Virus record (IMG/VR): IMGVR_UViG_2602041549_000008
Reading direction: 5' to 3' (one strand)
Length of the DNA: 8,346 nt
Origin: a virus
Lineage: Duplodnaviria > Heunggongvirae > Uroviricota > Caudoviricetes
Under the pieces are notes generated by a model that was not told the origin of the DNA, ran no database searches, and saw only the letters and a program-made list of their open reading frames with translations. This document shows positions 1-8,346 of this stretch, piece after piece. A program made the position numbers and the translations under genes. Numbering within the stretch: position 1 is the stretch's first letter; each line of letters opens with the position of its first letter.

Positions 1-1
1 T

Positions 2-130
2 GTCCTGATTAGCTTACTGTCATGGGGACTTTTCGGCCAACGGCTGGACCTGCCAGCCATTATAGGCATGATGTTGATTTGTGCCGGTGTGTTGGTTATT
101 AATCTATTGTCACGAAGCACACCACATTAA
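2..130 (+). CDS. emrE: 3' end of a small multidrug resistance (SMR) efflux protein, EmrE-like; gene starts upstream of the window
   Basis: Frame 2 is open from the window edge and reads VLISLLSWGLFGQRLDLPAIIGMMLICAGVLVINLLSRSTPH, ending at TAA 128-130. The hydrophobic helix plus short polar tail matches my memory of the EmrE C-terminus. A hairpin and T-tract follow immediately. Partial gene, identity from recollection only. Confidence 0.75.
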   Translation, partial: VLISLLSWGLFGQRLDLPAIIGMMLICAGVLVINLLSRSTPH

Positions 131-161
131 AAATAATTTGTTTCTAAACTACTAAAATATG

Positions 162-201
162 GAGGCTCTTATATTTATATGAGCCTCGTTTTATGCTTTT
201 T
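162..201 (+). terminator. Rho-independent terminator candidate downstream of the emrE-like gene
   Basis: Inverted repeat GAGGCTC (162-168) / GAGCCTC (181-187) around an AT loop that can pair further, followed by GTTTTATGCTTTTTGTT (T-rich). It sits about 30 nt after the stop codon. Confidence 0.55.
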
Positions 202-386
202 GTTAATGTCTTTATTTTTTTATGTATTCTTTTGTGCTTTCAAGATTATGGCGTAAGAAAATTGCAATACGATTATTGTTGTATATTCAAGATAATGTGA
301 CCTTAATTGTCTTTTTAAATAAAAATTAAACAAAAATTATATCCCACCACTAATGTTTATAAAAGCATACGTTAGCAGGTGTCACC

Positions 387-1913
387 ATGAAAAAAGCCAT
401 AGCATATATGCGATTTTCATCACCAGGTCAGATGTCTGGCGACTCATTAAACCGACAGAGAAGACTTATTGCTGAATGGTTAAAGGTAAATAGTGATTAT
501 TATCTTGATACCATAACATATGAAGATTTAGGATTAAGTGCATTCAAAGGAAAGCATGCACAATCAGGAGCTTTTTCGGAATTTTTAGATGCTATAGAGC
601 ATGGTTATATATTGCCAGGAACTACATTGTTAGTTGAAAGTCTGGACAGACTTTCAAGAGAAAAAGTCGGTGAAGCGATTGAACGTCTGAAATTGATTTT
701 GAATCACGGTATTGATGTTATAACTCTTTGCGACAATACAGTCTATAATATTGACTCTTTGAATGAGCCATATTCATTAATAAAAGCCATACTTATAGCA
801 CAAAGGGCAAATGAAGAAAGCGAGATAAAGTCAAGTCGGGTTAAATTATCATGGAAGAAAAAACGGCAGGATGCACTGGAATCAGGTACGATTATGACGG
901 CGTCTTGTCCGAGATGGCTCTCCTTAGATGACAAAAGAACGGCTTTTGTTCCAGACCCCGACAGGGTGAAAACTATTGAGCTAATTTTTAAACTCAGGAT
1001 GGAAAGGCGCTCATTGAATGCAATAGCCAAGTATTTAAATGATCATGCTGTAAAGAATTTCTCAGGAAAAGAAAGTGCATGGGGACCTTCTGTAATTGAA
1101 AAATTATTAGCGAATAAAGCTCTGATAGGTATATGCGTACCTTCATATCGTGCAAGAGGGAAAGGAATAAGTGAAATCGCGGGCTATTATCCCAGAGTCA
1201 TATCAGATGATTTGTTTTACGCTGTACAGGAAATTCGGTTGGCACCTTTTGGTATTAGCAATAGTAGCAAGAATCCTATGCTAATAAATCTACTTCGAAC
1301 AGTTATGAAGTGTGAGGCTTGTGGTAATACCATGATTGTTCATGCGGTATCTGGAAGTTTGCATGGCTATTATGTTTGTCCGATGAGAAGATTACATCGA
1401 TGTGACAGGCCATCAATAAAAAGAGATTTGGTTGATTATAATATCATTAATGAATTGCTTTTTAATTGTAGCAAAATTCAACCAGTTGAAAACAAGAAAG
1501 ATGCTAATGAAACTTTAGAGTTAAAAATTATTGAGCTTCAGATGAAAATTAATAATTTAATCGTTGCATTGTCTGTCGCGCCTGAAGTTACAGCTATAGC
1601 AGAGAAAATAAGACTATTAGATAAGGAATTACGAAGGGCTTCGGTATCATTGAAAACTTTGAAGAGTAAAGGTGTAAATTCATTCAGTGATTTTTATGCT
1701 ATTGACTTAACCAGTAAAAATGGACGAGAGTTATGCCGTACACTTGCCTATAAAACATTCGAAAAAATCATAATTAATACGGATAATAAAACCTGTGATA
1801 TCTATTTTATGAATGGCATTGTTTTTAAACACTATCCTTTAATGAAAGTAATATCCGCCCAGCAGGCGATAAGTGCTCTCAAATATATGGTTGATGGTGA
1901 GATTTATTTCTAA
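387..1913 (+). CDS. ybcK: Large serine recombinase (resolvase/invertase-type catalytic domain + recombinase domain + zinc ribbon + coiled coil), 508 aa
   Basis: ORF-track ORF with ATG at 387 preceded by AGGTG (377-381). The N-terminus AIAYMRFSSPGQ...R fits the serine-recombinase catalytic motif (Y-x-R-x-S...Q). The C-terminal part has a Cys cluster CEACGNT...YYVCP...HRC typical of the recombinase zinc ribbon, followed by a coiled-coil-like stretch (LELKIIELQMKINNLIVALS). Length is typical of large serine recombinases. Strongly AT-rich codon usage. Confidence 0.9.
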   Translation: MKKAIAYMRFSSPGQMSGDSLNRQRRLIAEWLKVNSDYYLDTITYEDLGLSAFKGKHAQSGAFSEFLDAIEHGYILPGTTLLVESLDRLSREKVGEAIERLKLILNHGIDVITLCDNTVYNIDSLNEPYSLIKAILIAQRANEESEIKSSRVKLSWKKKRQDALESGTIMTASCPRWLSLDDKRTAFVPDPDRVKTIELIFKLRMERRSLNAIAKYLNDHAVKNFSGKESAWGPSVIEKLLANKALIGICVPSYRARGKGISEIAGYYPRVISDDLFYAVQEIRLAPFGISNSSKNPMLINLLRTVMKCEACGNTMIVHAVSGSLHGYYVCPMRRLHRCDRPSIKRDLVDYNIINELLFNCSKIQPVENKKDANETLELKIIELQMKINNLIVALSVAPEVTAIAEKIRLLDKELRRASVSLKTLKSKGVNSFSDFYAIDLTSKNGRELCRTLAYKTFEKIIINTDNKTCDIYFMNGIVFKHYPLMKVISAQQAISALKYMVDGEIYF

Positions 1914-2111
1914 ATAATGATCTTGGATTTTAAGTTATGCTATGATGATAAAGTGCAAGACAGAATTAATTATCTTTAACGAAACTTAATGGGTAATTAC
2001 TTTGTTTGCTCCCACAAGCGAGTTTTGTACGGCTGTATTGGGGTAGTAAATGAGCTATACAATCTTAATCATTTGTTAGGTGAGAACTCTTGGTCGCAGA
2101 TTCAAATACTG

Positions 2112-2161
2112 AAAATACGTGACAAATTATTATGAGCAAAATGGTGTATGTCACGTATTTT
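2112..2161. repeat. Perfect 13-bp inverted repeat AAAATACGTGACA / TGTCACGTATTTT with a 24-bp spacer, in the ybcK-ybcL intergenic region
   Basis: Read directly: left arm 2112-2124 and right arm 2149-2161 are exact reverse complements. A flanking TTCAAA...TTTGAA extends the symmetry imperfectly. No convincing T-tract follows. Confidence 0.7.
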
Positions 2162-2293
2162 GAATGGTAGGTTAAAAAATAACACCGACTTTCGTAGGTA
2201 TTACTAATAATAAAGCAGAGTTTTTAATAGTATCAATGTGCTTTGTGTATATTGTGGCAAATAATTGGGTTGGGGGTACAATTGTGATTGCTT

Positions 2294-2323
2294 TTGCATG
2301 AACATTGCGCCTTTATGCATAAT
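2294..2323 (+). promoter_or_regulatory. Candidate sigma70 promoter for ybcL-ybcM (-35 TTGCAT, 18-bp spacer, -10 CATAAT)
   Basis: Hexamer match by eye, about 55 nt upstream of the ybcL ATG. Not unique in this AT-rich region, so low confidence. Confidence 0.25.
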
Positions 2324-2376
2324 GAGATAAAGGAATATCAAATAAAATAACGATAGGTCATAACAAAGAGGTTTTT

Positions 2377-2928
2377 ATGAAAACACTTATCGTTTCAACT
2401 GTATTGGCATTCATAACATTTTCTGCGCCGGCTGCAGCATTTCAGGTCACTAGTAATGAAATAAAAACAGGAGAGCAACTTACAACGTCTCATGTCTTTT
2501 CTGGATTTGGGTGTGAAGGTGGTAATACATCGCCCTCATTAACCTGGTCTGGTGTTCCTGAAGGTACCAAAAGCTTTGCCGTAACTGTATATGATCCAGA
2601 TGCACCTACAGGCAGTGGTTGGTGGCATTGGACTGTTGTTAATATTCCAGCAACAGTAACATATTTGCCCGTTGATGCAGGAAGACGTGATGGAACAAAA
2701 CTGCCGACTGGTGCTGTTCAAGGCCGAAATGATTTTGGCTATGCTGGGTTTGGTGGCGCATGTCCTCCTAAAGGAGATAAACCACATCATTACCAGTTTA
2801 AAGTATGGGCTCTAAAAACTGAAAAGATTCCTGTAGATTCTAACTCCAGCGGAGCGTTAGTTGGTTATATGCTTAATGCTAATAAAATCGCAACCGCTGA
2901 GATAACACCAGTTTATGAGATAAAGTAG
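2377..2928 (+). CDS. ybcL: Secreted (periplasmic) PEBP/RKIP-family protein, 183 aa, with N-terminal signal peptide
   Basis: ATG 2377 with AGAGG Shine-Dalgarno 5 nt upstream. N-terminus MKTLIVSTVLAFITFSAPAAA is a classic Sec signal peptide. PEBP signature motifs are present: YDPDAPTGSGWWHW and KPHHYQF. Confidence 0.92.
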   Translation: MKTLIVSTVLAFITFSAPAAAFQVTSNEIKTGEQLTTSHVFSGFGCEGGNTSPSLTWSGVPEGTKSFAVTVYDPDAPTGSGWWHWTVVNIPATVTYLPVDAGRRDGTKLPTGAVQGRNDFGYAGFGGACPPKGDKPHHYQFKVWALKTEKIPVDSNSSGALVGYMLNANKIATAEITPVYEIK

Positions 2929-2937
2929 GGTGAGAGT

Positions 2938-3735
2938 ATGCTGGCAAGAGGTAAGACTAACTTAAAGATCGAAGAAATACGGATGCATAAACATCATGAG
3001 ATTCATAGGGTTAAGCCTCTTATGCCAGCTTTGTGTCGTATCCGTCAGGGAAAGAAAGTTATCAATTGGGAGACGCATACTTTAACTGTTGATAATAATC
3101 AAATAATATTATTTCCTTGTAGTTATGAATTTTATATTGAGAATTATCCTGAAGCAGGGCTTTATCTTGCAGAAATGCTTTACTTACCCATTGATTTAAT
3201 TGAGAGGTTCCAAAAACTTTATACGGTAACTGATCAAATACGTAACAAAACAAGTTTCTTTTTACCTCAGAATCCTGAGTTAATATATTGTTGGGAGCAA
3301 CTAAAAACATCTGTTTCCCGAGGCTTCTCAACTAAAATTCAGGAGCACTTAGCAATGGGCGTTCTACTTTCGTTAGGAGTGAATCATGTTAATCATTTAC
3401 TTTTATCATATAGTAAACAATCATTGATAAGTCGTTGTTATAACCTGCTGCTATCCGAACCCGGCACAAAATGGACAGCAAACAAGGTTGCACGATATCT
3501 CTACATTTCTGTTTCTACATTACATCGCCGTCTAGCAAGCGAGGGGGTAAGTTTCCAAAGTATACTGGACGATGTGAGGTTAAATAATGCGTTGTCTGCT
3601 ATACAAACGACGGTAAAACCTATAAGCGAGATTGCCAGAGAAAATGGTTATAAGTGTCCTTCTCGTTTTACTGAAAGATTTCATAATCGTTTTAATATAA
3701 CACCAAGAGAGATAAGAAAAGCTTCCAGAGAGTAA
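2938..3735 (+). CDS. ybcM: AraC/XylS-family transcriptional regulator, 265 aa
   Basis: Starts 10 nt after the ybcL stop, so likely co-transcribed. The C-terminal 100 aa ([45 protein letters not shown]...[20 protein letters not shown]) has the two helix-turn-helix units of AraC-family proteins. The true start could be Met16 (2983); the ORF-track start was kept. Confidence 0.88.
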
Positions 3736-3799
3736 AAGTGTTTTAAGAAGGAGCAATTCTATCGATTTTGATTTTGGGAAATCAACACGGCATAATTAT

Positions 3800-3828
3800 G
3801 TCACCGGAGCCTGAACAACTCCGGTGAC
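3800..3828 (+). terminator. Perfect 10-bp stem / 9-nt loop hairpin (GTCACCGGAG...CTCCGGTGAC) about 65 nt after ybcM; possible terminator or boundary element
   Basis: Arms 3800-3809 and 3819-3828 are exact reverse complements. The downstream TTCTGCGCT is only a weak U-tract. It lies at the transition from AT-rich to GC-richer sequence. Confidence 0.3.
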
Positions 3829-3851
3829 TTCTGCGCTAAACGGGGACGTTT

Positions 3852-3953
3852 ATGCGCACATACAATCCAACCTCTCTTCTCCATTCACAGATGCAGAAAT
3901 GCACCTGCGATATTTTGCATCCAGCGTTTGATCTCTGCGGAGGTGAAGCGTGA
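3852..3953 (+). CDS. ylcH: Small nin-region protein, 33 aa ([33 protein letters not shown])
   Basis: ATG 3852 to TGA 3951-3953, with the stop overlapping the GTG start of the next gene (GTGA). Position between ybcM and ybcN and the 33-aa length match my recollection of ylcH. No strong Shine-Dalgarno. A short ORF, so moderate confidence. Confidence 0.45.
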
Positions 3954-4405
3954 ACCTCCCACAAGATGGTATCAAATTGCATCGCGGTAACTTCACCGCT
4001 ATCGGTCGGCAGATCCAGCCTTATCTGGAGAACGGCAAATGCTTTCGCATGGTGCTTAAACCGTGGCGCGAGAGACGCAGTCTTTCCCAGAATGCACTCA
4101 GCCACATGTGGTACAGCGAAATCAGTGAATACCTCATCAGCAGGGGTAAAACGTTCGCCACTCCAGCTTGGGTAAAAGATGCTCTCAAACACACATATCT
4201 CGGTTATGAAACCAAAGACCTGGTTGATGTCGTAACCGGTGATATCACCACTATCCAGTCGTTACGCCATACCTCCGATCTTGATACCGGAGAGATGTAT
4301 GTCTTCCTGTGTAAGGTTGAAGCCTGGGCGATGAATATTGGTTGCCATCTGACTATTCCGCAGAGCTGCGAGTTCCAGCAGCTCCGCGACAAGCAGGAGG
4401 CGTAA
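3950..4405 (+). CDS. ybcN: NinB/Orf-family protein (lambdoid recombination-associated; YbcN-like DNA-binding protein), 151 aa
   Basis: GTG start at 3950 with GGAGG (3939-3943) upstream. The protein [15 protein letters not shown]...[16 protein letters not shown]... shares the R-S-L-x-Q-N...W core that I recall from lambda NinB. Confidence 0.88.
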
Positions 4406-4575
4406 TGGCTACACCGCTTATTCGTGTCATGAACGGACACATCTACAGAGTACCAAATCGTCGTAAGCGTAAACCTGAGCTGAAGCCATCCGAAATACCA
4501 ACACTGCTCGGGTATACCGCCAGCCTGGTTGATAAAAAATGGTTGCGACTGGCAGCAAGGAGGAGTCATGGCTGA
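4405..4575 (+). CDS. ninE: NinE-family small basic protein, 56 aa
   Basis: ATG 4405 overlaps the ybcN stop (TAATG); AGGAGG at 4395-4400. The product [28 protein letters not shown]...[13 protein letters not shown] resembles lambda NinE (basic RKRKP motif, W-L-R). The ORF-track ORF from 4342 is an upstream extension of the same frame. Confidence 0.8.
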   Translation: MATPLIRVMNGHIYRVPNRRKRKPELKPSEIPTLLGYTASLVDKKWLRLAARRSHG

Positions 4576-4858
4576 TTTGAGAAAAGCAGCGCGTGGTCGG
4601 GAATGCCAGGTAAGAATCCCTGGCGTATGTAATGGCAACCCTGAAACGTCTGTACTGGCACATATCCGGCTGACTGGATTGTGCGGCACCGGTACCAAAC
4701 CGCCAGACCTGATTGCCACCATTGCATGTTCTGCCTGCCACGACGAAATCGACCGCCGCACACATTTTGTCGATGCTGCATATGCAAAAGAATGCGCGCT
4801 GGAAGGTATGGCGAGAACACAGGTTATCTGGCTGAAAGAGGGGATTATTAAGGCGTGA
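4568..4858 (+). CDS. ybcO: YbcO-like Cys/His-rich (zinc-binding, DUF1364-type) protein, putative nuclease, 96 aa
   Basis: ATG 4568 with AGGAG (4561-4565) upstream; overlaps the ninE 3' end by 8 nt. The product [37 protein letters not shown]...[11 protein letters not shown] has a C-x7-C...C-x2-C-H metal-binding pattern. The ORF-track start at 4529 is an upstream extension. Confidence 0.85.
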
Positions 4859-5217
4859 ATACCTACAGCATCACATTACCCTGGCCTCCGAGCAATAATC
4901 GCTATTACCGCCATAATCGCGGGCGCACGCACGTCAGCGCAGAGGGGCAGGCATACCGCGATAACGTCGCCCGAATCATTAAAAACGCAATGCTGGATAT
5001 CGGCCTGGCTATGCCTGTGAAAATCCGCATTGAGTGCCACATGCCGGATCGCCGTCGCCGTGACCTGGATAATCTGCAAAAAGCCGCTTTTGACGCACTC
5101 ACTAAAGCAGGTTTCTGGCTGGATGATGCTCAGGTCGTTGATTACCGCGTTGTGAAGATGCCTGTTACCAAAGGTGGGAGGCTGGAACTGACCATCACCG
5201 AAATGGGGAATGAATGA
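4855..5217 (+). CDS. rusA: RusA-family Holliday junction resolvase (endodeoxyribonuclease), 120 aa
   Basis: GTG start at 4855 overlapping the ybcO stop (GTGA). The product [38 protein letters not shown]...[30 protein letters not shown] matches my memory of E. coli RusA, including the acidic D-x-D-N segment. Confidence 0.93.
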
Positions 5218-5354
5218 TGTTTGAGTTTTATATGGCAGAACTTCTTCGCCACCGCTGGGGGCATCTGCGCTTATATCGTTTCCCCGGTTCTGTTTTGACC
5301 GATTACCGAATACTGAAGAATTACGCCAAAACCCTGACAGGAGCAGGAGTATGA
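5214..5354 (+). CDS. ylcG: Small nin-region protein, 46 aa ([46 protein letters not shown])
   Basis: ATG 5214 overlaps the rusA stop (ATGA); a second in-frame ATG lies at 5217. Size and position between rusA and the Q gene match my recollection of ylcG. Confidence 0.6.
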
Positions 5355-5439
5355 AGTCAGAGATAACAATCAACTAATACTGTTTTGTTGATTTTTGCTT
5401 GTAATTGGCGTTCTGGTCTGATTTTTGTGGAGTAAGTTG

Positions 5440-5823
5440 ATGCGTGATATTCAGATGGTTCTTGAGCGTTGGGGAGCGTGGGCGGCTAATAATCATGAAG
5501 ATGTGACCTGGTCGTCCATTGCCGCCGGTTTTAAGGGATTAATTCCTTCAAAAGTAAAATCTCGCCCGCAATGTTGTGACGATGACGCGATGATCATTTG
5601 CGGGTGCATGGCCCGTCTGAAAAAGAACAACAGCGATTTGCACGATTTATTAGTAGATTATTATGTAGTCGGTATGACATTCATGTCACTGGCAGGTAAG
5701 CATTGCTGCTCTGATGGTTATATCGGGAAAAGGTTACAGAAGGCTGAGGGCATAATTGAAGGGATGTTAATGGCATTAGATATCCGGTTAGAGATGGATA
5801 TCGTTGTTAATAACTCTAATTAA
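5440..5823 (+). CDS. quuD: Q-family late-gene transcription antiterminator (phage 82/21-type Q), 127 aa
   Basis: ATG 5440 with GGAG 8 nt upstream. The product [22 protein letters not shown]...[17 protein letters not shown]...HCCSDGYIG has the Cys-rich zinc-binding pattern of 82-type Q proteins. It sits at the end of the nin block, directly upstream of the late/lysis region. The ORF-track start at 5425 is a TTG extension. Confidence 0.88.
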
Positions 5824-5856
5824 TATGCCAATTGTTTACTAAAAATTATTAAAAAT

Positions 5857-5874
5857 GGGGCGTTGCAACGCCCC
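5857..5874 (-). terminator. GC-rich palindrome GGGGCGTTGCAACGCCCC; candidate terminator for - strand transcription (nmpC) or part of the late-promoter/qut region
   Basis: Perfect 18-bp palindrome (7-bp GC stem, 4-nt loop). On the - strand it is followed by ATTTTTAATAATTTTT (reverse complement of 5841-5856). On the + strand it is followed by A-rich sequence, so it is unlikely to terminate + strand transcripts. Confidence 0.35.
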
Positions 5875-5962
5875 CAAAAATAAAGGGTAATATATAACAG
5901 AAGGTTTATATAGTTAGAAGCAAGGTTGTGCTCCTAAAGGAAGTGGCTTGAGGGAGCCACTT

Positions 5963-6002
5963 ATATGTTGGGGAGGCAAAGCCTCCCGCAACATATCTTT
6001 TT
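5963..6002 (+). terminator. Rho-independent terminator candidate between quuD and the 3' end of nmpC (possible late-leader terminator, tR'-like)
   Basis: Long interrupted hairpin ATATGTTG-GGGAGGC-AAA-GCCTCCC-G-CAACATAT (5963-5996) followed by CTTTTTC (T-run 5998-6002). Preceded by a second perfect 8-bp hairpin AAGTGGCT...AGCCACTT (5941-5962). Confidence 0.5.
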
Positions 6003-6012
6003 CGTAATCAGA

Positions 6013-7110
6013 TTAGAACTGGTAAACCAGACCTACAGCAACGATGTCATCAGTGCTTACACCGAGTGCTTTAGTGAAGTCATTTTTGTCAAGCAGGTTG
6101 ATTTTGTAATCAACGAAAGTAGACATATTTTTGTTGAAGTAATAGGTTGCACCTACATCAACATATTTGACTAAGTCCTGATCGCCCCATACTCCAAGAT
6201 CCTTACCTTTAGATTGCAGGTAAGCAACGGACGGACGCAGACCGAAATCGAACTGATATTGTGCAACAGCTTCGAAGTTTTGAGCTTTATTAGCAACGAA
6301 GTGATCAGCAAATACAGTCATATTCTGGGTTTCAGAATAGGTAGTGGCCAGGTAAATGTTGTTAGCGTCATATTTCAGACCTGCGGCCCAAACTTCTGCA
6401 TTTTTACCGGAAGCAAATACTTCAGGAAGAACTTTCCCTGCATTAACTTGAGTGTCGGTACGATCAGATTTCGCATAAGTTGCACCGATACCGAACCCTT
6501 CGTATTCATAGGTAGCAGAGAAACCGAAGCCATCACCGTTACCTTCGGTGTAGTTATCGAAATCGCTACGATCGTTTTTGCCTTGGTACTGAGCAGCAAA
6601 GTTCAGACCATCAACCAGACCAAAGAAGTCGTTGTTACGATAGGTTGCAACACCAGTGGTGCGACCAGTCATGAACACATCTGTTTGGGTCCAGGTATCG
6701 CCACCGAATTCTGGCAGTACGTCAGTCCACGCACCGATGTCGTATGCTACACCGTAGTTACGGCCGTAATCGATTGAGCCGTAGTCACCGAATTTCAGGC
6801 CTGCAAATGCAAGACGGGTTTTGTCTTTGGAGGAACCTTGAGATTCAGCGCGGTTGCCTTTGAATTCATATTCCCACTGACCGAAACCAGTCAGTTGATC
6901 GTTGATTTGGGTTTCACCTTTGAAGCCAAGACGGGCATAAGTAGTATCACCATCATCTGCATCATTAGAGGAGAAGTAGTGCTTAGCATTAACTTTCCCG
7001 TACAGATCCAGCTTGTTACTGTCTTTATTATAAATTTCAGCTGCCTGAGCAGACATCGCCATCAGTACTGATGCAGCTACAGCAGAAATTGCCACTGTTA
7101 ATTTTTTCAT
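6013..7110 (-). CDS. nmpC: General diffusion outer-membrane porin of the OmpC/OmpF/PhoE/NmpC (Lc) family, 365 aa precursor, apparently intact
   Basis: The - strand ORF has an N-terminal signal peptide [23 protein letters not shown] then the mature start [17 protein letters not shown], typical of enterobacterial porins. It ends in ...VGLVYQF, the conserved C-terminal Phe of beta-barrel outer-membrane proteins. The ORF-track start at 7170 adds 20 residues; the internal ATG at 7110 gives the canonical signal peptide. Confidence 0.9.
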
Positions 7111-7536
7111 CGTGAGCCCTTTTTTTGAACTATTATTAAAAAATGATGTCACTGCGCGATAAATATTCATCTAATCAATGTGATTATTTCAAGATGTAAG
7201 TTTTAGTTTCTCATTTAATTTGTGAAGTAGATCTCTATTTTTATCTGAACTTTTTCTATCGAAACCTATTTATGGCTCTTATTTGAACAAAAATAAACCT
7301 ATTAGCCAATTTATATTAACGGCTGTTATTTATAAGTGCTCTGTAATTTGAAGGTTCAATTTAAATCGGCTAAAAATAACACTGGAAATTATTTGTTGGT
7401 TATTTGTTGAGATTTGCTTATGTATTTGTAGTGGTGTTTTCAATACTCGGTAGCATTCTCGCAAATATCATTTTGTGGTTTACGTACGTAAAAACTTGGT
7501 TATGCTGTTAAGAGTGGTTACTTCGTCACACAGCTT

Positions 7537-7570
7537 AAACCCGCCGTCGAGCGGGTTTTTCCATTTTTTG
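7537..7570 (+). terminator. Strong Rho-independent terminator on the + strand, about 130 nt upstream of the holin gene
   Basis: AAACCCGC-CGTCGA-GCGGGTTT hairpin (stem 7537-7544 / 7551-7558, GC-rich core) immediately followed by TTTTTCCATTTTTT. Confidence 0.6.
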
Positions 7571-7697
7571 AGTCTCGATATTAGCTGATAACCCAATACC
7601 TGAGTTATTCACTGACTCCGAGTCTGTTACGTTTCTGCTTTTTTGCGATACGTTGTATTCCCTCAATTTACACCCGCTTTGTCTGCGAGGTGGGGTT

Positions 7698-8310: not shown

Positions 8311-8346
8311 TGGATTTGCCCCTATATTTCCAGACATCTGTTATCA
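8311..8346 (-). mobile_element. Terminal inverted repeat of an IS2-like (IS3-family) insertion sequence, partial; element body lies beyond the window end
   Basis: TGGATTTGCCCCTATATTTCCAGACATCTGTTATCA matches my recollection of the IS2 right-end inverted repeat read as its reverse complement. The junction falls inside the endolysin reading frame. Confidence 0.7.

Follow-up and report, generated by a model that had tools for sequence, protein, structure and literature searches.

We have analyzed a stretch of 8,346 nucleotides (nt) from a virus of the Caudoviricetes, IMG/VR record IMGVR_UViG_2602041549_000008, which we call the window. Its left part is an AT-rich block with the genes emrE, ylcJ, ybcK, ybcL and ybcM, which occupies a slot from ren to the nin operon of a lambdoid prophage and has the same orientation as the early rightward operon. 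We describe here the composition of this block, its edges, the genes found in the same slot in related phages, and the most probable origin of the arrangement.

The window is part of a DLP12/phage-82-type lambdoid prophage of Escherichia coli. It has the order O-P-ren...ninB-like-ninE-rusA-Q-lysis, and nucleotide identity to both DLP12 and phage 82. The closest relative is a lambdoid prophage of E. coli strain A8 (locus L001), inserted at the tRNA-Arg gene argU, which matches the window at 99.2% over 8,311 bp. This prophage has intD at tRNA-Arg, the full lambda-like gene order and complete synteny with the window; it is seemingly complete, unlike the deleted remnant of K-12. The order of DLP12 in K-12, emrE-ylcJ-ybcK-ybcL-ybcM-ylcH-ybcN-ninE-ybcO-rusA-ylcG-quuD-nmpC-essD-rrrD, is also that of the window. 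Identity to K-12-lineage genomes is 98.5-99.6% for the DLP12 genes, and 99.6-99.7% for the ybcK and ybcLM segments. The window differs from K-12 DLP12 in three features: nmpC is intact, with no IS5, rrrD is cut by an IS2 end at 8311, and ylcJ is disrupted. The phage 82 record X92588, from 1996, is 100% identical over 3719-3830 and carries annotations for the same -35, -10 and palindrome; phage 82 therefore holds at least the 3' end of ybcM. The whole block is found at 99.4-99.5% identity in PhiR34_1, PhiR68_2 and PhiR70_1, phage records deposited as complete genomes. Phages Turner, Perceval, 4A7, Lambda_4C10, D2, 1W and 3W contain part of it.

The features of the block and of the sequence on its right are the following:

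1-128, plus strand: 3' end of emrE, coding for an SMR multidrug efflux pump, with its stop codon at 126-128 (RefSeq annotation in L001); first module.
162-187, plus strand: terminator-like hairpin followed by a U-rich run, downstream of emrE (fold -14.0 kcal/mol, z = -3.4); its function is putative.
179-331, plus strand: ylcJ, a small open reading frame, here a pseudogene with three in-frame stops; frameshifted in the L001 annotation.
297-325, plus strand: sigma-70 promoter of ybcK, GTGACC-17-TAAAAA, an exact match in the window to the motif in PMC3946193.
387-1913, plus strand: ybcK, a large serine recombinase of 508 amino acids (Pfam PF00239, PF07508 and PF13408, all above gathering scores).
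1923-2234, no strand: spacer of 312 bp and 32% GC, specific to the K-12-type ybcK-to-ybcL arrangement.
2112-2124 and 2149-2161: perfect 13-bp inverted repeat AAAATACGTGACA-N24-TGTCACGTATTTT (fold -18.9 kcal/mol, z = -5.1).
2254-2282, plus strand: sigma-70 promoter of the ybcLM operon, GTGGCA-17-TACAAT; the consensus scan gives the same motif as PMC3946193.
2377-2928, plus strand: ybcL, coding for a periplasmic PEBP/RKIP-like protein (Pfam PBP, E = 3e-42); third module, with ybcM.
2938-3735, plus strand: ybcM, coding for an AraC-family regulator (Pfam HTH_18/HTH_AraC).
3766-3768, no strand: right edge of the variable cargo slot (Blast breakpoints in loci L002, L005, L006, L007 and L020).
3768-3796, plus strand: promoter-like element of the nin leader, with -35 TTGATT at 3768-3773, a 17-nt spacer and -10 CATAAT at 3791-3796.
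3800-3828, plus strand: perfect 10-bp inverted repeat with a 9-nt loop (RNA fold -22.2 kcal/mol, z = -3.6).
3852-4405, plus strand: ylcH/orf33 and ybcN (NinB/Orf family), the start of the nin block of about 50% GC (RefSeq, phage 82 annotations, PMC4118853). The Pfam NinB match of ybcN (E = 4e-4) is below the gathering score.

The base composition of the block is very different from that of the nin region: 36.0% GC in 1-3765 and 50.2% in 3766-5400 (chi-square 94, p = 3e-22). When one change-point is allowed within 2500-5200, the best fit puts it at 3800 (2-log-likelihood support interval 3770-3823) and improves the log-likelihood by 24 relative to a model without a change. The GC content of third codon positions (GC3) is 28.5% in ybcK, 25.0% in ybcL and 28.9% in ybcM, and rises to 59.2% in ybcN, 48.5% in ybcO and 58.7% in rusA. 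Five host genes from the fetched loci have a GC3 of 53-61%; the block is AT-rich relative to its host, and the prophage minus the block has 50.7% GC. On the left, with the flank taken from L001, the drop in GC starts at the 3' end of ren. Within the block the composition varies: emrE has 42% GC (GC3 35%) and ybcL also 42%. Another AT-rich region in the window is that of nmpC (5831-7650, 40.3% GC), which falls to 29-30% at 7050-7500, upstream of nmpC. Published data obtained by systematic evolution of ligands by exponential enrichment place H-NS flags in the emrE>ybcK and ybcK>ybcL spacers of K-12, and constitutive RpoD promoters in the same two spacers (PMC3946193).

The preliminary description of this DNA had already noted the difference in composition. 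Its spot counts are exact (25.0% GC in 481-540 and 53.3% in 4561-4620), and the switch that it placed within about 100 bp at 3780-3850 agrees with the change-point at 3800 (3770-3823). The perfect 10-bp hairpin mentioned beside the switch is found at 3800-3809/3819-3828, and the gene identities are those given by Pfam for ybcK, ybcL and ybcM and by RefSeq for emrE. It had proposed GC and codon profiles as a check, and these do separate the block from the backbone (36.0% against 50.2% GC, and GC3 of 25-29% against 49-59%).

The whole insert has about 4.04 kb, and its right-hand 3.77 kb lie inside the window. Its left boundary had been supposed to lie outside the window, and this is the case: the left edge is the ren stop (L001 11695-11730), about 270-305 bp beyond the left end. 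The emrE gene begins 67 bp past the ren stop, which is about 205 bp before position 1 of the window. Homology to differently loaded relatives stops at L001 11495-11695, which corresponds to window positions -505 to -305, and homology to a chromosomal copy beside fliE, described below, begins at -279. We have also observed a perfect 10-bp inverted repeat, GTTCAAACTG-N15-CAGTTTGAAC, just 5' of the emrE start codon (L001 11747-11781, about 220-255 bp left of the window). The fliE-side copy has nearly the same repeat, its second arm differing at one position.

On the right side, homology returns at 3766-3768 in five prophages with different inserts. A scan of IMG/VR with the 3' half of the leader palindrome described below gives 121 instances, from which we have taken 58 representatives that show no relation to one another in the 100 nt upstream. 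All these upstream sequences converge at 3767/3768, where column information rises from about 0.1 to about 2.0 bits between 3766 and 3768. The ren-side edge is equally sharp: it corresponds to the ren stop codon, often as an ATGA overlap with the next gene. Since an edge at a stop codon is as sharp as the edge on the nin side, this argues that both are set by selection at functional limits and not by a site-specific enzyme.

The contents of the slot are highly variable. Apart from the arrangement in the window, we have found the following variants:

O157:H7 prophage at icd, and phage Turner: emrE-ybcK only.
Strain E14, and phages Perceval, 4A7 and relatives: emrE-ybcK and a reversed alpha/beta hydrolase gene.
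Strain O17_K12a: emrE-ybcK, a P22AR-like gene (P22AR-C) and a hypothetical gene.
Strain YA-1: GNAT, Arc and antirepressor-like genes, with none of the four block genes.
Strain FDAARGOS_1251: DUF4145 and a theta-like (HOT) gene, with none of the four block genes.

In loci L006 and L007 the P/ren and nin flanks have 95-97% identity to those of the window, and the inserts are unrelated to the block; L002, L005 and L020 have no ybcLM. Among 48 IMG/VR contigs with a Ren homolog, the interval from ren to the leader has 762-6,425 bp and 35-54% GC. The arrangement in the window is among the largest and most AT-rich of these, and an empty slot does not appear in any of them, the minimum being the 762 bp just mentioned. 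The block is thus absent from relatives that keep both flanks, and its composition is unlike that of the backbone. One of the two readings proposed for it was horizontally acquired cargo, and our results support this: phages with the same backbone carry wholly different genes between ren and the nin leader, and the composition is far from that of both backbone and host. The published promoters inside the block (PMC3946193) agree with this reading.

Breakpoints between these variants define at least three modules in the block. The first is emrE, up to 137; the second is ylcJ-ybcK (138-1922), where 138-386 goes with ybcK; the third is ybcL-ybcM with its promoter (2235-3765). The spacer between the last two is delimited in the same way: homology to the O157, E14 and O17 prophages stops at 1922, and homology to the fliE-side copy restarts at 2235. 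Its inverted repeat at 2112-2161 resembles a bidirectional terminator, to judge from its predicted fold. We should also note that its 50 bp are the size of a serine-integrase attachment (att) site, and that it is absent from the other ybcK-linked variants. As for ylcJ, it is intact in other relatives, such as L008, and frameshifted in strain A8.

We have searched for these modules in 5,426 complete E. coli genomes. The ybcK module is found in 1,427 of them, with 1,402 contiguous emrE-ybcK junctions against 1,400 full-length ybcK copies, so ybcK does not appear in varied insertion contexts within E. coli. Many more genomes, 3,258, contain ybcLM, and they are sharply split in two classes: 672 at 95% identity or more, the phage type, and 2,586 at 90-95%. 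The second class corresponds to a chromosomal locus between fliE and yedK/yedF (L003 6720-9381 and L004 6720-8971 in the fetched loci), with emrE-ybcL-ybcM and without ybcK. This fliE-side copy also contains scraps of phage sequence in phage order: ylcH to the start of ybcN (window 3766-3952), the last 100 bp or so of quuD (5725-5821) and the region upstream of nmpC (7070-7446). Because these scraps are collinear with the phage, the locus looks like an old, heavily deleted DLP12-like prophage in which the cargo has survived.

All four cargo genes are under purifying selection, with ratios of nonsynonymous to synonymous substitution rates (dN/dS) of 0.02-0.13. The values are 0.02-0.08 for emrE, 0.07-0.11 for ybcK, 0.09 for ybcL against the fliE-side allele, to which it has 96% identity, and 0.13 for ybcM. 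On the products of these genes there are published data: YbcL variants of uropathogenic E. coli suppress neutrophil migration (PMC4810123), and YbcM binds 5' of ybcLM, as detected by chromatin immunoprecipitation with exonuclease digestion, and regulates its own expression, while deletion of ybcM lowers survival to H2O2 8-fold (PMC8464067).

In lambdoid phages, morons are independent transcription units found between backbone genes, often with deviant composition (PMC3594210). The block is, very probably, an accessory array of this kind, in a hypervariable ren-nin slot of a DLP12/phage-82-type prophage and made of independently exchangeable modules. The results presented above show a composite foreign array whose parts reassort independently, which is carried by phages deposited as complete genomes and is retained under selection after the decay of the phage. 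The modules would have been imported from AT-rich donors by illegitimate joins. They would then reassort among related phages, probably through recombination in the conserved flanks (the end of ren and the nin leader) and, within the slot, through illegitimate joins; lambdoid phages are known to swap segments with DLP12 through relaxed homologous recombination (PMC3945230). Selection would cut the junctions back as far as the first functional element on each side, which is the ren stop on the left and the nin-leader -35 on the right. Each of the three modules would have a sigma-70 promoter of its own, according to the literature on these promoters, and YbcK may be a captured integrase-type gene. 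The genes would serve as lysogenic-conversion cargo and not for phage functions: efflux in the case of EmrE, a periplasmic PEBP in that of YbcL, and regulation under oxidative stress in that of YbcM.

Some observations weigh against this explanation. We have not identified a donor organism. The hairpins at 162-187 and 2112-2161 are only predicted as terminators, and a simple terminator scan misses both. At the fliE-side joint (137/138 against 2234/2235) there are 18 unmatched bases in AT-rich sequence, so that either the entry of ybcK into an emrE-ybcLM array or its loss from the fliE-side copy may account for the difference. The fliE-side alleles hold a GC3 of 25-40%, with no drift to the host value at a synonymous divergence (dS) of 0.18-0.39 from the phage alleles; low GC may therefore be kept in part by selection, and not be purely a sign of recent import. 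Finally, 58 unrelated sequences meeting at one nucleotide are sharper than random joining alone predicts, a convergence which may reflect selection together with genome compaction.

A first alternative takes the chromosomal copy as the source: emrE-ybcL-ybcM would have passed into a phage from a chromosomal island located next to fliE. This copy is in fact the commoner one (2,586 against 672 genomes) and has no ybcK. Nevertheless, its collinear backbone fragments (ylcH, the end of quuD and the region upstream of nmpC) make no sense as chromosomal DNA, and in the phage these genes lie in the middle of the genome, not beside att, where aberrant excision would take host DNA. We consider such a capture unlikely.

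The other alternatives involve YbcK, which has all the features of a large serine recombinase: a resolvase domain with the catalytic serine, a recombinase domain and a zinc ribbon (Resolvase, Recombinase and Zn_ribbon_recom in Pfam). Residues Y7, R9, S11, Q15, D87, R88 and R91, and the cysteines C309, C312, C331 and C339, are invariant in 15 homologs. It shares its domain architecture and catalytic motif with the large serine recombinases which act as prophage integrases, and its closest homologs outside E. coli, with 52-59% identity, are found at prophage-host junctions, in the position of an integrase, in Atlantibacter, Yersinia and Erwinia. Other homologs, at 42% and 59%, are found between replication and nin genes in other lambdoid prophages. 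Unlike the prophage integrases, ybcK in the window and its counterparts in L015 and L016 are in the middle of the genome, between replication and nin/Q genes, and prophages carrying ybcK already have their own tyrosine integrase at the end. Because ybcK is far from any prophage end, a role as integrase of its host prophage would be unlikely.

Comparison of the DNA around ybcK with seven homolog loci shows similarity limited to the coding region, and no shared palindrome, operator-like motif or att candidate was found near the homologs. L016, a lambdoid contig with a 59% homolog, contains a recombinase-KGG-DinI module between direct repeats of 229 bp with 82.5% identity, which are diverged copies of the 5' end of a DUF1367 gene (8623-8851 and 11608-11830). 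This arrangement suggests homologous or illegitimate joining, and not insertion at a specific site. A SIR2-like gene is found in the same replication-nin interval of L016. A homolog with 50% identity is found in Citrobacter koseri (L018 7145-10530), beside a gene with a faint Shufflon_N match; the surroundings are conjugative-element-like (TraD, MobA/MobL), so the YbcK family is not limited to phages. A PDB sequence search with YbcK gave no match at E <= 0.001, PADLOC defence models gave no matches to YbcK, YbcL, YbcM and four alternative cargo proteins, and we found no paper in the literature on ybcK as a large serine recombinase.

With such a gene in the block, the preliminary description had suggested a nested integrative element, which YbcK would insert and excise as a unit. 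In favor of it are the intact architecture of YbcK, its invariant catalytic residues, purifying selection, and homologs in integrase position at prophage ends. The rest of our results do not agree with this proposal. The block is not present or absent as a unit, its modules vary independently of one another, the very outcome that the preliminary description had given as a refutation: emrE-ybcK appears without ybcLM, or with a hydrolase or P22AR-like gene in its place, and emrE-ybcL-ybcM appears without ybcK in 2,586 genomes. The recombinase gene itself is not at an edge of the block, and practically all its copies in E. coli are contiguous with emrE. Short direct repeats at both ends had been proposed as a further check, and with the left flank of L001 available we detect no direct or inverted repeat of 9 nt or more joining the ren-side and nin-side junction regions, only one 8-mer, at chance level. 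Within 1-4100, apart from the 13-bp inverted repeat at 2112-2161, there are only short pairs at chance level. The same right junction is found in phages without ybcK, the homologs have no conserved flanking sequence outside the coding region, and the recombinase module of L016 is bounded by a diverged gene-fragment repeat, suggestive of homologous or illegitimate joining. A nested element is therefore very unlikely.

A more limited role for YbcK would be that of an active accessory enzyme which exchanges only the downstream cassette (1923-3765), as in integrons. There are at least four different contents after the same ybcK (ybcLM, the alpha/beta hydrolase, P22AR-C with a hypothetical gene, or nothing), the left break is 9 bp past the ybcK stop, and the 50-bp palindrome with perfect arms is 200 bp downstream. 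On the other hand, the break at 1922 corresponds to a single divergence, that of the K-12 type from all others: among the other three variants the common sequence extends 66-283 bp past ybcK, so this is not a recurrent site. The right junction of the cassette is common to phages without ybcK, the sequences at the 1922 and 3766 junctions have no similarity, and the palindrome at 2112-2161 is absent from the other ybcK variants. We consider this possibility highly improbable.

The right edge of the slot coincides with the nin leader. Its -35 and -10 are found by consensus scan, are conserved as alignment columns and are annotated as putative in X92588. The -35 TTGATT is one arm of a palindrome, TTGATT-N6-AATCAA, whose second arm lies in the spacer; this arm keeps 1.5-1.9 bits, a conservation higher than a sigma-70 spacer would require. 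An FNR site (N4 spacing) and an integration host factor site would not fit this palindrome, given its spacing and sequence, and both readings were rejected. According to PMC4118853, the operon that follows is adequately expressed in K-12 only with an inserted promoter; in the lysogen, the nin-leader element would therefore be weak, under repression, or followed by termination. The inverted repeat at 3800-3828, labeled in X92588 as a 'possible regulator-binding site', is part of the conserved backbone on the nin side and not of the cargo. The stem pair 3804:3824 is C:G in the window, U.G in 73 of the 121 instances and U:A in three contigs, which hints at pairing in RNA. A scan of the whole window against Rfam (E up to 0.1) and scans for tRNA and tmRNA gave no matches, so this hairpin does not belong to a curated RNA family, and there is no tRNA-type att site in the window.

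The leader of about 60 bp from 3768, with its operator-like palindrome, -10 and hairpin, might also be a docking site for site-specific insertion of cargo, possibly by YbcK-family recombinases, and in that case 82-type lambdoid phages would have in their ren-nin slot a platform for cassettes similar to that of integrons; this docking is hardly probable, and targeted insertion at the leader, for which we find no positive support, is hardly probable either.

The window contains a second cargo slot, between quuD (Q) and the holin gene (5831-7650), with an intact nmpC-type porin gene on the minus strand. The contents of this Q-holin slot also change: L008 has a lipocalin, a YbgA and a helix-turn-helix gene, and the O157 prophage in L002 has no porin. 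The last 36 bases of the window (8311-8346) are an IS2 terminus inside the lysozyme gene rrrD, which is intact in strain A8.

The block genes, their location in a prophage, the promoters and the palindrome are already present in public annotation and in published work, and the arrangement corresponds to ordinary lambdoid mosaicism. The significance of the composition is also limited: it restates that in DLP12-type phages the interval from the replication to the nin region contains lysogenic-conversion genes rich in AT. Our results add some context to this. The textbook SMR pump gene emrE and the ybcLM genes travel on phages deposited as complete genomes, and the cargo persists in about half of E. 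coli genomes in a decayed prophage remnant beside fliE. The edges of the ren-nin slot are common, to the nucleotide, to dozens of unrelated inserts. For teaching, the locus illustrates neatly how morons turn over and how selection favors the cargo over the genes of the phage; it does not indicate a new kind of element.

In summary, the block resembles morons in most features. It is missing from syntenic relatives and its GC content is deviant; according to published data it would have promoters of its own, it would be dispensable for phage functions, and its products would be directed to the host, with beneficial or neutral effects. Unlike a single-gene moron, it is an array of three modules with about 4 kb, and a recombinase is an unusual moron cargo. 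The slot, in turn, resembles the mosaic boundaries of lambdoid phages (PMC3945230), with sharp junctions at functional limits, exchangeable inserts on one backbone and defective prophages as reservoirs. There is no categorical difference from such boundaries: 58 sequences meeting at one nucleotide are a very clear example of them.

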